Shown: one piece after another, positions 3,935 to 42,196 of the stretch
Layout of the letters: every line of letters starts with the position of its first letter
Position numbering within the stretch: position 1 is the first letter of the stretch
From: an uncultured Pseudomonadales bacterium
GTDB taxonomy: Bacteria; Patescibacteriota; Microgenomatia; UBA1400; PJMF01
Length of the DNA stretch: 64,000 nt
Assembly (NCBI GenBank): GCA_964653045.1
Contig: CAZZBW010000002.1
Span: 298-64,297, forward strand
Direction: 5' to 3'
Made by a program: the position numbers and the translations under genes
Notes under the pieces: model-generated
What the model was told of the DNA's origin: nothing
The model's input: only the letters and a program-made list of their open reading frames with translations
Database searches by the model: none

Positions 3935-3996
3935 GGAAGCGTCGCACCTGCCCGCAATGCATACGCATAGCGTTGCAGGCGGGTAGCGGTCAATTG
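3935..3996 (+). other. partial 5' copy of tRNA-Ser (acceptor stem + D arm) interrupted by a 37-nt insert
   Basis: ggaagcgtcgca + insert + tagcggtcaattg is identical to nt 1-25 of the downstream tRNA except for the insert in the D loop. Confidence 0.55.
3947..3983 (+). repeat. 37-nt GC-rich element (inverted-repeat arm U)
   Basis: cctgcccgcaatgcatacgcatagcgttgcaggcggg; its exact reverse complement is at 4161-4197; a near copy is at 12909-12944. Confidence 0.7.
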
Positions 3997-4055
3997 AAAA
4001 ACACTACAACTGACAACCATACTGAAATTAGACTAGAATTAACAAGTAGAAAAAA

Positions 4056-4143
4056 GGAAGCGTCGCATAGCGGTCAATTGCACCGGTCTTGAAAACCGGA
4101 ACCCGCAAGGGTTTCGTGGGTTCGAATCCCACCGCTTCCGCCA
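4056..4143 (+). tRNA. tRNA-Ser (anticodon TGA), type II with long variable arm, CCA encoded
   Basis: Cloverleaf folds by eye: acceptor GGAAGCG/CGCTTCC, anticodon stem CCGGT/ACCGG with loop CTTGAAA, variable arm ACCCGCAAGGGT, T arm GTGGG-TTCGAAT-CCCAC, discriminator G. Confidence 0.85.
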
Positions 4144-4160
4144 GGAAAGGTGGGATGAGA

Positions 4161-4197
4161 CCCGCCTGCAACGCTATGCGTATGCATTGCGGGCAGG
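4161..4197 (-). repeat. 37-nt GC-rich element (inverted-repeat arm D), perfect reverse complement of 3947-3983
   Basis: cccgcctgcaacgctatgcgtatgcattgcgggcagg. Confidence 0.7.
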
Positions 4198-4288
4198 AGT
4201 TTACTCTGAATTAGATTCAGGGAATCCCACCACTTCCGCCGCAACAATCGTTACCACTACCGTTTCAAAAAAATTAAATACAATTGAT

Positions 4289-10741: not shown

Positions 10742-10813
10742 GCACCCATAGTTAAACGGATAGAATAGCGGTTTGCGGAACCGTTGATCCAGGTTCGATT
10801 CCTGGTGGGTGCA
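10742..10813 (+). tRNA. tRNA-Arg (anticodon GCG)
   Basis: Acceptor GCACCCA/TGGGTGC, anticodon stem GCGGT/ACCGT with loop TTGCGGA, T arm CCAGG-TTCGATT-CCTGG, discriminator A; D stem is weak. Confidence 0.6.
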
Positions 10814-10846
10814 CACCTTAAACTTATCAATTAACATAGCATTATT

Positions 10847-12896: not shown

Positions 12897-12959
12897 GGAA
12901 GCGTCGCACCTGCCCGAATGCGTACGCATAGCGTTGTAGGCGGGTAGCGGTCAATTGCA
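12897..12959 (+). other. second partial 5' copy of tRNA-Ser interrupted by a 36-nt insert (paralogue of 3935-3996)
   Basis: ggaagcgtcgca + cctgcccgaatgcgtacgcatagcgttgtaggcggg + tagcggtcaattgca; the insert contains the perfect 12-bp palindrome ATGCGTACGCAT. Confidence 0.55.
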
Positions 12960-12980
12960 TTATAATAAAAACATTAAATT

Positions 12981-13068
12981 GGAAGCGTCGCATAGCGGTC
13001 AATTGCACTGGTTTCGAAAACCAGAGCCTTCACCGGCTTCGTGGGTTCGAATCCCACCGCTTCCGCCA
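12981..13068 (+). tRNA. tRNA-Ser (anticodon CGA), type II, CCA encoded
   Basis: 5' 25 nt identical to the tRNA at 4056; anticodon stem CTGGT/ACCAG with loop TTCGAAA; long variable arm; same T arm and acceptor. Confidence 0.85.
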
Positions 13069-13190
13069 TTCTCCGTCAAACTCAGAATGTCACTGAGTGA
13101 CGAGCGAGAACTGAAAGTCCAAACATCGACTATGTAAGTGATGAATACCCTTGACAAGACAGTTATAATTTTATCGTTATATATCATTAA

Positions 13191-36062: not shown

Positions 36063-36494
36063 CCTTACCCTTTGGGGATGTAACGCTTTGACGTGACAAG
36101 CTCTTTAACAGTCGCAAGTCGTCTTTAGTCAAAAGACGTAAAAAAGGACTAAAAACATAACTGCAGATACAATCAGCAGCAAAGCTCGCAACTTCGTAAC
36201 TGAAGTTGCCGAAGGTGTCGACTCTTTTGTCGATTCATTCAGAGCTCCACAAATGCTTTACGCATAAGTGGCATTCATCCGAGGCGTTTCACTGGCGCGC
36301 GCGGGTGGGTGACAAATCAGTCAGTGTGACAATCTGATCGTCTGTGCCGATCAGAAATAAGCAAATTGTACAGAGGGAGTGTGCTCCGGTTTGTTCATCC
36401 ACCCGCTTACTCCGCCAACTCAAAGATGAACTACACTTGTAGAAGCTGTTTTTGACTATTCACAGACACGGGCTCATTACCCGTCATCTCCACC
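36063..36494. other. GC-enriched structured non-coding region between convergent genes (candidate ncRNA or decayed gene)
   Basis: No ORF of 60 aa or more; local GC is clearly above its flanks; several hairpins (acgtctt..aagacgt) and a long-range pairing (gcgggtgggtga / tcatccacccgc about 90 nt apart). Confidence 0.25.
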
Positions 36495-37514
36495 TTACAA
36501 ATGTTTTTGGTTTATTGTTAGATAATACGCATCGATATCGCTTTTGATCTGTTTTGCTAACGCTTCTGCGAACTTAACAGGAACAGCATTACCAACCATT
36601 TTATAACCAGTAGCTAAATCATCATATATAAAACGAAAATCGTCGGGAAAAGTCTGGATTCTGGCGCACTCTCTTACAGTTAACCTTCTGTATAAGTGCT
36701 CTTTACCAGGAGCAAATATTCTTTTGTCATAATCAACAAATTTCATCTTTGGTGCCTGAGGATGAATTGGAGCATGCCTGCCACCAGCCTGAATTGTAAA
36801 CGATTGTTCATCCCAATTTCTGACTCTATTTCGCGACATATAAATTGTTGAAAAACCTCCATTCATGTACTCATGATTTGGCGTTGACAGATCTGATCCA
36901 TTTGTTTTGTTAAAATCTCTTGCTTTGACTGCAGTATCTTTTAGATCCCAAATCGTATCTCTTAGAGTTAGTTCGTTACTCGACACTTTTGGAAAAACAA
37001 ACTTTTTATTCATTTTTTTATGATAACCTACAAAAATTACTCTTTTTCTATCTTGCGGAACATTATAATTTTTTGCGTTTAATAACTGATAATCAAAACT
37101 ATAACCAAGTTTATTAAATTCTTCTATTAAATTTGAAAGCGCCTGTTGATGTCTAGTTGACAACATTCCTGAGACATTTTCTGCCAAAAAGAAAAGCGGT
37201 TGCTTGTCTCTAATTACTCTAATATGCTCAAAAAAAACTTTGCCTCTTTTGTCTCCCAAACCTCTACCGGCACCAGCCTCACTCCAACTTTGACATGGAG
37301 GACCACCAATTACTCCGATAGCTTTGGGAATCTCTTCAGAAGGAACATCGGTAACACTACGCTCGTCAACCACTGTATTTGGAAAGTTTTCTCTTAACGT
37401 AGGCGTAATAGTCGTATCAAATTCGTTTGCCCAAATTATCTTAAATCCGGCATTCTCAAAACCAAGGTCTAACCCGCCAGCACCTGTAAAAAGTGAAACA
37501 ATGTTATATTTCAT
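36495..37514 (-). CDS. DNA (cytosine-5)-methyltransferase, type II R-M
   Basis: FTGAGGLDLGF (motif I), GGPPCQSWS (PC motif IV), ENV (motif VI). Confidence 0.85.
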   Translation of the reverse strand: MKYNIVSLFTGAGGLDLGFENAGFKIIWANEFDTTITPTLRENFPNTVVDERSVTDVPSEEIPKAIGVIGGPPCQSWSEAGAGRGLGDKRGKVFFEHIRVIRDKQPLFFLAENVSGMLSTRHQQALSNLIEEFNKLGYSFDYQLLNAKNYNVPQDRKRVIFVGYHKKMNKKFVFPKVSSNELTLRDTIWDLKDTAVKARDFNKTNGSDLSTPNHEYMNGGFSTIYMSRNRVRNWDEQSFTIQAGGRHAPIHPQAPKMKFVDYDKRIFAPGKEHLYRRLTVRECARIQTFPDDFRFIYDDLATGYKMVGNAVPVKFAEALAKQIKSDIDAYYLTINQKHL

Positions 37515-42180: not shown

Positions 42181-42196
42181 TAGCAAAATTTTGCTA
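42181..42196. promoter_or_regulatory. 16-bp perfect palindrome TAGCAAAATTTTGCTA (copy 1 of pair, region 1)
   Basis: Read directly; second copy (TTGCAAAATTTTGCTA, 1 mismatch) at 42331-42346, 150 bp away. Confidence 0.5.

Follow-up and report, generated by a model that had tools for sequence, protein, structure and literature searches.

The locus studied lies in a 64-kb stretch of DNA, which is called the window throughout, and centers on a tRNA-Ser(CGA) gene. Upstream of the intact gene a displaced copy of the tRNA 5' end was found, which is split by a 36-nt hairpin element and is followed by a short spacer (locus 2, Table 1). The tRNA bases that flank the insert are contiguous (nt 12|13), and, thus, the insertion was precise and no target-site duplication was generated. 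The position of the break, after nt 12, is given in our own tRNA numbering and corresponds to the 5' edge of the D loop. The insert contains the palindrome ATGCGTACGCAT at positions 12918-12929. ARAGORN and Rfam called only the downstream intact tRNA-Ser genes, but not the stubs. An interpretation as a tRNA intron or a split tRNA was rejected, the fragment ends at nt 27 at locus 2 and at nt 25 at the second locus.

The second locus was found at the tRNA-Ser(TGA) gene (locus 1, Table 1) and has the same layout. In this case, the second stub fragment has a length of 13 nt (ending with nt 25) versus 15 nt at locus 2. The two window tRNA-Ser genes are identical over their first 28 bases. The insert of locus 2 differs from the 37-nt copy in the locus 1 stub by the deletion of one C and two substitutions. 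It differs from the consensus of the hairpin family described below at three to four positions, and it carries the exact 20-mer that was used for scanning. The two 37-nt copies of locus 1 have one extra base relative to the family consensus.

These results agreed with most of what an earlier note on this DNA had described. A partial tRNA-Ser with an insert, an intact tRNA-Ser(CGA) 21 nt further on and a palindrome inside the insert were all recovered, and the intact gene was called by both ARAGORN and Rfam. The claimed identical arrangement about 9 kb away was found as well. The claimed lack of a downstream inverted copy at locus 2 was also seen, the window contains three hairpin copies only (at most 7 errors allowed). 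Two details were revised. The shared 5' end was verified, but its extent had been given as 25 nt, whereas the fragment of locus 2 spans 27 nt and the genes share their first 28. An interruption at the same D-loop position had been claimed, and both window loci are indeed interrupted at nt 12|13, but the exact site is the 5' edge of the D loop.

Table 1. Coordinates of the features at both window loci and of the GIY-YIG loci at tRNA-Pro genes of other genomes.
Feature	Position	Strand	Remark
Locus 2: tRNA-Ser nt 1-12, displaced copy GGAAGCGTCGCA	12897-12908	+	exact 12-mer also at 3935, 4056, 12981
Locus 2: 36-nt hairpin element, slightly degenerate copy CCTGCCCGAATGCGTACGCATAGCGTTGTAGGCGGG	12909-12944	+	contains the family 20-mer CGCATAGCGTTGTAGGCGGG
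Locus 2: tRNA-Ser nt 13-27, displaced copy TAGCGGTCAATTGCA	12945-12959	+	contiguous with 12897-12908 after removal of the insert
Locus 2: 21-nt spacer with TATAAT (12961-12966)	12960-12980	+	read from the sequence
Locus 2: intact tRNA-Ser(CGA)	12981-13068	+	ARAGORN; Rfam RF00005, 57.5 bits
Locus 1: sister unit, tRNA-Ser nt 1-12, 37-nt hairpin (3947-3983), nt 13-25	3935-3996	+	orthologous unit in L130
Locus 1: 59-nt spacer with promoter-like CTGACA-18-TAGAAT (4010-4039)	3997-4055	+	10/12 consensus positions
Locus 1: intact tRNA-Ser(TGA)	4056-4143	+	ARAGORN; Rfam, 59.4 bits
Locus 1: solo inverted 37-nt hairpin in the tRNA trailer	4161-4197	-	37/37 identical to 3947-3983
Locus 1: 3' tRNA-Ser fragment GAATCCCACCACTTCCGCCG	4222-4241	+	paired with an inverted copy at 4144-4160
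tRNA-Pro GIY-YIG loci	L116 1923-2340; L144 1190-2250; L146 1050-1830; L148 1050-1900		

The repeats are not random, as both counts were beyond chance. The 12-mer GGAAGCGTCGCA occurs four times versus 0.2 expected occurrences, and zero matches to the 37-mer hairpin are expected by chance (100 shuffles). An independent Logan assembly (L001) covers 2305 bases including the unit of locus 2 and is 100% identical to the window, so that an assembly artefact can be excluded for this arrangement; an artefact reading of the window units is thus poorly supported.

The third hairpin copy lies in inverted orientation downstream of tRNA-Ser(TGA). It splits the sequence GATGAGA|AGTTTAC, the two parts of which are adjacent in the relative L122, and, again, the insertion was precise and without duplication. 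The two copies form 37-bp perfect inverted repeats around the tRNA gene, but an interpretation as transposon ends or as a processing stem was rejected as a general explanation, because locus 2 has no second copy and the downstream copy is an independent precise insertion. The trailer itself, GACGAGCGAGAA..AGGTGGGATGAGAAGTTTAC, is conserved at tRNA-Ser genes of this lineage (window 4144-4241 and 13098-13112; L122 and L134). It consists of an inverted copy of the tRNA 3' end, followed by a direct 3' tRNA fragment, and is present in tandem in L122. The trailer fragments indicate that partial tRNA duplications of the 3' end occur besides those of the 5' end. Without the hairpin, the trailer module was found 3' of tRNA-Ser(GGA) in L122 and L134. 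For the glycosyltransferase gene that adjoins locus 1, an exact look-up gave no match.

Occurrence of the unit at related tRNA-Ser loci

Fourteen metagenomic stretches, from activated-sludge and similar metagenomes, were retrieved with the intact 25-mer of the tRNA-Ser 5' end and served as relatives. One of them, L121, is syntenic with locus 2 on the hflX side (about 85% nucleotide identity) and contains tRNA-Ser(CGA) without the unit. Compared with this empty site, the window carries 84 extra bases. The stub of locus 2 has the position that the start of the tRNA has in L121, and, therefore, the added DNA is best described as an insertion at nt 12|13.

The next example was L130, which, like L133, is syntenic with locus 1. 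Two tandem, partly degenerate units were found upstream of tRNA-Ser(TGA). The first unit of L130 matches the unit of locus 1 including the 59-nt spacer, but has an extra decayed hairpin. The spacers of the window and L130 are identical at 56 of 59 positions (manual count), versus about 85% for the flanking genes. The second unit contains fragments of 12 and 15 nt and a 21-nt spacer, CTATAATAACTACATTAAACA, which matches the spacer of locus 2 at 16 of 21 positions. Degeneracy of the L130 units was seen as GGAAGCATCGCA and as decayed hairpins. Thus, the unit with the 21-nt spacer belongs to Ser(CGA) in the window, but to Ser(TGA) in L130, which indicates that the small unit moved between paralogues.

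A further variant was present in L125, i.e., GGAAGCGTCGCA, a hairpin of another type (TCCTCCTTCGTCCCGCTTAGCGGGACTTCGGATGGACGC, about 39 nt) and diverged nt 13-25, located about 70 bases upstream of tRNA-Ser(GGA). Also in this case the stub is split at nt 12|13. The orthologous site in L126 is empty, and the window has no copy of the second hairpin type (GTCCCGCTTAGCGGGAC). The unit is also missing at nine other related tRNA-Ser loci. Taken together, the unit of the window is not conserved in its lineage and has a presence/absence polymorphism like that of homing elements (L121 empty and the window filled, L126 empty and L125 filled, two units in L130).

All hairpins found in this lineage lie at tRNA-Ser loci; this applies to three of three window copies, and about 70 kb of the relatives' sequence contained no copy at other sites. 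A hairpin-free 5' stub was not found among the 14 related tRNA-Ser stretches or at the other window tRNAs; the tRNA-Arg, tRNA-Val and tmRNA genes of the window have no such stubs.

The hairpin family and its association with tRNA and GIY-YIG genes

The window copies belong to a family of 36-nt repeats of the form CCTGCCCGCAATGC..GCGTTGCAGGCGGG, which occurs in CPR and PVC genomes. A scan of one genome per species with the 20-mer CGCATAGCGTTGYAGGCGGG, taken from the 3' half of the insert, yielded at least 119 stretches from at least 81 assemblies (counted by accession prefix). Among the matches listed were Patescibacteria (CPR, many classes), Verrucomicrobiota, Lentisphaerae and Kiritimatiellia, and also a few bins labelled 'uncultured Gammaproteobacteria/Bdellovibrionales'. 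Around the 20-mer, 36 bases hardly vary (CCTGCCCGCAATGCTACGCATAGCGTTGCAGGCGGG), but the flanks of different loci are not related. The family consensus folds into an imperfect hairpin (-12.6 kcal/mol as DNA, z -4.0), and the values for the copy in the stub of locus 1 are similar (-12.8 kcal/mol, z -3.4). The copy of locus 2 folds weakly (-5.7 kcal/mol, z -0.55) and is, thus, a degenerate hairpin.

About 40% of the listed hairpin copies lie within ORFs that read through them. In genomes of low G+C content these ORFs are real genes with a 12-residue in-frame insert, PARNATHSVAGG, which was found in the genes for GAPDH, RpoC, UvrA, RecG, MurE, OTCase, ThiI and UvrD. In MurE the insert is at the same site in two genomes. 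In-frame loci in CPR genomes are L095, L118, L030, L076, L029, L110, L064, L011 and L120. The copies within genes strongly prefer one orientation and one reading frame, though four of the six frames are open.

Additional observations concern the flanks and the nesting of the copies. Many solo hairpins lie in the middle of arrays of 7-9-base tandem repeats (AAAGTCA, CTTTACGAA), with repeats on both sides; hairpins flanked by short tandem repeats were seen in L033, L060, L076, L089, L109 and L120. Repeated insertion and excision could have left these repeats as footprints, or a target preference could be the reason. In PVC genomes the hairpins are often nested, with one copy in the loop or arm of another and in opposite orientation (L003, L025, L090, L021, L044, L070, L114, L085 and L116 1685-1755), and some of these genomes contain them within longer repeats that are specific to the genome (L004 and L012 have flanks in common).

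No Rfam family for the hairpin or the unit was found with gathering or permissive thresholds, the only extra match was a sub-threshold sX4 hit that overlaps a tRNA. The hairpin was absent from 2.9 million viral contigs of IMG/VR, and a phage vehicle was therefore rejected. A description of the hairpin or of the tRNA-targeting element could not be found in the searchable literature (by DNA, peptide and keyword; about 1.4 million PMC manuscripts and most subscription-journal papers lie outside this reach, so that an earlier description may exist).

About one tenth of the listed hairpin matches sit within a duplicated 5' tRNA fragment, as revealed by tRNA scans and inspection. The left flank of the hairpin corresponds to tRNA nt 1 to N, the right flank to nt N+1 to about 18-35, and the stub is followed by the same tRNA in intact form. 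The value of N is 3-8 in L014, L042 and L105, 9 in L043, L055 and L046, 10 in L015 and L049, 11 in L097, 12 in the window, 19 in L104 and 21 in L093. This architecture was found at tRNA genes for Val, Ile, Gln, Leu, Met, Arg and Thr in other genomes.

At ten CPR loci selected via the hairpin, the interval between stub and tRNA is occupied by an ORF of 78-79 aa, which encodes a GIY-YIG catalytic domain alone (Pfam PF01541, E-values of 3e-15 to 9e-18; tblastn). Its stop codon lies 0-36 nt 5' of nt 1 of the intact tRNA. A protein search with the 78-aa GIY-YIG sequence yielded at least 558 clusters, nearly all of 78-81 aa; for many of these clusters, contigs of about 1-2 kb are the only source. 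Four members from long contigs were chosen only via the GIY-YIG protein to remove the bias of selection by the hairpin. The full arrangement of hairpin, stub, GIY-YIG gene and tRNA was found in all four, L135 and L140 at tRNA-Ile, L137 at tRNA-Thr and L142 (Saganbacteria) at tRNA-Gln, and the hairpins are variants of the same family. The hairpin lies within a recognizable tRNA stub in 13 of the 14 ORF-bearing cassettes (ten hairpin-selected and four protein-selected), the exception is L073. In L043 the whole cassette of 297 nt is present twice in tandem. The orientation of the hairpin relative to the tRNA is about 50:50. The mean identity of the GIY-YIG proteins is 66% for the same tRNA target and 62% for different tRNAs, and a grouping by target was rejected in view of this weak trend. 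The closest solved structures are the UPF0213 proteins 1ZG2 and 1YWL.

A distant GIY-YIG family of 85-88 aa adjoins tRNA-Pro in genomes of high G+C content (Table 1). There, pseudo-copies of tRNA-Pro have the anticodon arm swapped for a palindrome of the type TCCCGA-N5-TCGGGA or another G+C-rich palindrome. Tandem ORF-less pseudo-units lie upstream, four in L146 and two in L144, and L144 also has tandem ORFs. These copies indicate that hairpin-split pseudo-tRNA repeats are a general companion of mini-nuclease genes.

The units of the window lack the 78-81-aa GIY-YIG ORF, their spacers have lengths of only 21 and 59 nt. Searches for a GIY-YIG homologue were negative for the 64-kb window and for the relatives' contigs (about 70 kb; tblastn and an HMM of 12 ORFs). 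The idea that the spacers are remnants of a deleted ORF was rejected, as no similarity above shuffled controls was seen. ORF loss is, thus, not demonstrated, and the unit might also form without a nuclease. The window unit was therefore classified as an ORF-less relative and not as a full member of the cassettes. Parallels without an ORF exist at other tRNAs, i.e., L104 (Leu-TAG) and L093 (Val-CAC).

Possible origins of the unit

We somewhat favor the explanation that a small selfish insertion aimed at the 5' end of tRNA genes is present here in an ORF-less form. In this case, 84 bases would have been added at nt 12|13 of the tRNA gene, i.e., the 36-nt hairpin, nt 13-27, the 21-nt spacer and nt 1-12 once more. 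Upstream, the first 12 bases of the original gene would have remained as a dead stub interrupted by the hairpin, and a complete tRNA-Ser would have been regenerated downstream, probably with its own promoter (the TATAAT of the spacer resembles a -10 element). Promoter-like elements are present in both window spacers, which we count in favor of this explanation. Since the tRNA is regenerated, the insertion would kill nothing. A GIY-YIG nuclease of the 78-aa type, acting in trans or since lost, may make or provoke a break in the 5' region of the tRNA gene, and repair of the break may copy the unit, with the duplicated tRNA segments as short homology arms. Such a homing-like copying could lead to hops between the tRNA-Ser paralogues with their 28 shared bases and to tandem arrays, and repair via tRNA-derived arms would explain both.

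The sporadic presence, the variable copy number and the decaying copies argue against a host function and fit selfish DNA, and a nuclease-linked origin is the reading that most economically accounts for the constant coupling of hairpin, GIY-YIG gene and stub elsewhere. Several points speak against a selfish insertion. No GIY-YIG gene was found in the window or the relatives' contigs, and no ORF remnant in the spacers. The intact tRNA copy keeps the presumed target, so that re-cutting of the occupied locus would be expected, and the 78-aa protein is a catalytic domain only. The random orientation of the hairpin (about 50:50) argues against a strand-specific role in cis. In addition, L125 has a different hairpin at the same nt 12|13, and the GIY-YIG proteins cluster only weakly by tRNA target.

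The main alternative, which remains plausible though we judge it to be unlikely, involves two steps and no nuclease. Slippage or unequal recombination would have duplicated the tRNA 5' end in tandem, and a free-roaming hairpin would then have entered the neutral copy; insertions into a live tRNA would be lethal and hence never seen. The insertion of hairpins in many unrelated contexts including genes, their random orientation and the lack of a GIY-YIG gene or remnant at the window units are as expected for two such steps. The different hairpin of L125 can be accommodated in the same way, and so can the stubs of L130, L137 and L093, which show that several hairpins can pile up in one stub. However, every stub seen carries a hairpin, and the restriction of the lineage's hairpins to tRNA-Ser is unexpected if they roam freely. 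The coupling of hairpin, stub and GIY-YIG gene in four of four protein-selected loci also speaks for the selfish insertion and against two separate steps.

A host-selected cis-regulatory leader, which would act on transcription, processing or stability of the tRNA-Ser precursor, e.g., as a processing decoy or as a terminator or insulator, is poorly supported and appears improbable to us. It would account for the unit at two paralogous tRNA-Ser genes, for the promoter-like sequences in the spacers and for a 59-nt spacer that is more similar between the window and L130 than the flanking genes are. Yet the unit is missing at the syntenic site in L121 and at most related tRNA-Ser genes, its copy number varies, and degenerate copies exist (GGAAGCATCGCA, the decayed hairpins of L130 and the weakly folding copy of locus 2). 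A T-tract terminator was not found, and the same architecture accompanies a nuclease gene in other genomes. Partial direct repeats of a tRNA are the classic signature of tRNA-targeted integration, and such repeats are present here, together with a 3' tRNA fragment downstream at locus 1. Nevertheless, attL/attR-type scars of an island or prophage that was integrated by an integrase and lost again are also poorly supported and even less probable, close to negligible. The repeat is the 5' end of the tRNA and not the 3' end, only 21-59 bases lie between the repeats, and the hairpin interrupts the repeat instead of sitting between the repeats. No integrase domain was found in ten flanking ORFs scanned, and the hairpin was not detected in the viral contigs mentioned above.

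The results bear on several claims of the earlier note. The conservation of the unit across paralogues had been taken as an argument for maintenance as a functional unit, but this reading is not supported for the window units in view of the empty L121, the nine other empty loci and the two partly degenerate units of L130. The note itself had named tRNA-Ser genes without the unit as evidence against its reading, and L121 and the nine loci are such genes. A single recent segmental duplication, which it had named as well, does not account for the two window units, as their flanks and spacers (59 versus 21 nt) differ. Its view that the unit is not random debris held, with repeat counts beyond chance and the same architecture at other tRNAs. 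The D loop had been proposed as a site-specific target; the 5' (D-arm) part of the tRNA gene is indeed a recurrent site, but the exact break varies from nt 3 to nt 21. An exclusive link to tRNA-Ser was seen for the three hairpins of the window, but not in general, the architecture was found in other genomes at tRNA genes for Val, Ile, Gln, Leu, Met, Arg and Thr.

A more general proposal can be made tentatively, and we regard it as possible rather than probable. The hairpin and the 78-aa GIY-YIG gene may together form an unrecognized minimal mobile element of about 300 bases that invades tRNA 5' ends, regenerates the tRNA from a duplicated segment and leaves a split stub, and that would be the GIY-YIG equivalent of REP/RAYT. 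The hairpin alone may spread non-autonomously and almost without change across Patescibacteria and PVC bacteria, even in frame into essential genes, and the units of the window may have been mobilized in trans between tRNA-Ser paralogues.

Relation to known systems and further features of the window

The unit resembles free-standing homing-endonuclease cassettes and mobile ORFs that carry a replacement, without being a member of either group. The gene for the GIY-YIG endonuclease SegB of phages T4/T6 is located among tRNA genes, and the enzyme, which cleaves in the tRNA region, promotes the inheritance of its own gene (PMC2330249). In addition, SegB causes tandem segmental amplification, for which microhomology of a tRNA 5' end with the end of the SegB gene is used (PMC13096335). 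It may thus serve as an experimental precedent for nuclease-linked tRNA-gene units. Like SegB, the CPR cassettes have a GIY-YIG nuclease gene embedded among tRNA genes. In contrast, SegB is a full-length endonuclease, far longer than the bare catalytic domains of 78 aa, and it belongs to a phage, whereas the elements described here are bacterial and chromosomal, and the window copy has no nuclease gene. We know of no hairpin-split tRNA stub that has been described for SegB.

A fungal mitochondrial GIY-YIG mobile ORF at the atp6 gene of Allomyces, which Paquin et al. are said to have reported in 1994, reportedly carries a replacement piece of its target gene. This ORF and the tRNA-targeting integrative elements likewise regenerate the interrupted gene and leave a displaced pseudo-fragment beside it. 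Here, however, the 5' 12-35 bases of the tRNA are regenerated, the unit has a size of only 84-300 bases, the displaced fragment is split by a palindromic hairpin, and no integrase is involved.

The hairpin resembles two families of palindromic elements, but is a member of neither. REP sequences and REPINs, which are connected with RAYT proteins, are palindromes tagged with GTAG/CGTC (PMC3733652). In both systems a short palindrome of 20-40 nt is present in many copies, solo as well as tied to one small nuclease gene, and is inserted precisely. Differences are that the associated protein here is a GIY-YIG protein and not a Y1 HUH transposase, and that the hairpin has no end tag, its ends are CCTGCC and GGCGGG, and GTAG is confined to the loop on the reverse strand. 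In addition, REPs are lineage-specific, whereas the hairpin is near-identical across phyla and some of its copies are inside genes. The Rickettsia palindromic elements (RPE) are selfish DNA that is reportedly tolerated in frame in essential protein genes (said to have been described by Ogata et al. in 2000). The 12-aa insert PARNATHSVAGG in GAPDH, RpoC, UvrA, RecG and MurE is likewise an in-frame palindromic insert, but the hairpin, with its 36 nt, is far smaller than RPE, it occurs in different phyla, and it is linked with tRNA stubs and a nuclease gene. To our knowledge, there is no sequence relationship between RPE and the hairpin.

Taken by itself, the unit of the window looks like an ordinary scar, yet a widespread element was found through it. 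The results point to a very small element whose safe landing sites are tRNA genes, which are essential and universally conserved and are not destroyed by it, and they reveal a 36-base sequence that is near-identical across phyla and tolerated inside RpoC, UvrA and GAPDH. The stubs explain odd partial tRNA sequences and assembly breaks beside CPR tRNA genes, and in annotation they should not be labelled as functionally significant tRNA pseudogenes or as tRNA introns. If the link between nuclease and hairpin is true, the element would be a tractable system for analyzing how a bare GIY-YIG catalytic domain gains specificity, and it would show how selfish DNA spreads among ultra-small, reduced genomes.

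The window is bacterial and resembles DNA of Patescibacteria, it has a G+C content of about 43% and also contains a tmRNA gene, hflX and ddl. A perfect palindrome of 16-20 bp, (TTG)TAGCAAAATTTTGCTA, occurs five times within 15 kb, at positions 42181, 42334, 49530, 57009 and 57159; these copies are apparently intergenic and could represent an operator or another repeat family. The tmRNA gene (36074-36495) was detected by Rfam with 91 bits and was not called by ARAGORN. Its length is 422 bases, while the model has 374 positions, and about 68 inserted bases follow the tag-coding region; no hairpin copy lies inside the gene. The last example is the tRNA-Arg gene (10742-10814), which has the anticodon GCG, while the usual bacterial anticodon is ACG. 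L051 and L076 have the same anticodon, as do the relatives L124 and L127, in which the tRNA-Arg(GCG) gene lies upstream of tRNA-Ser(CGA).
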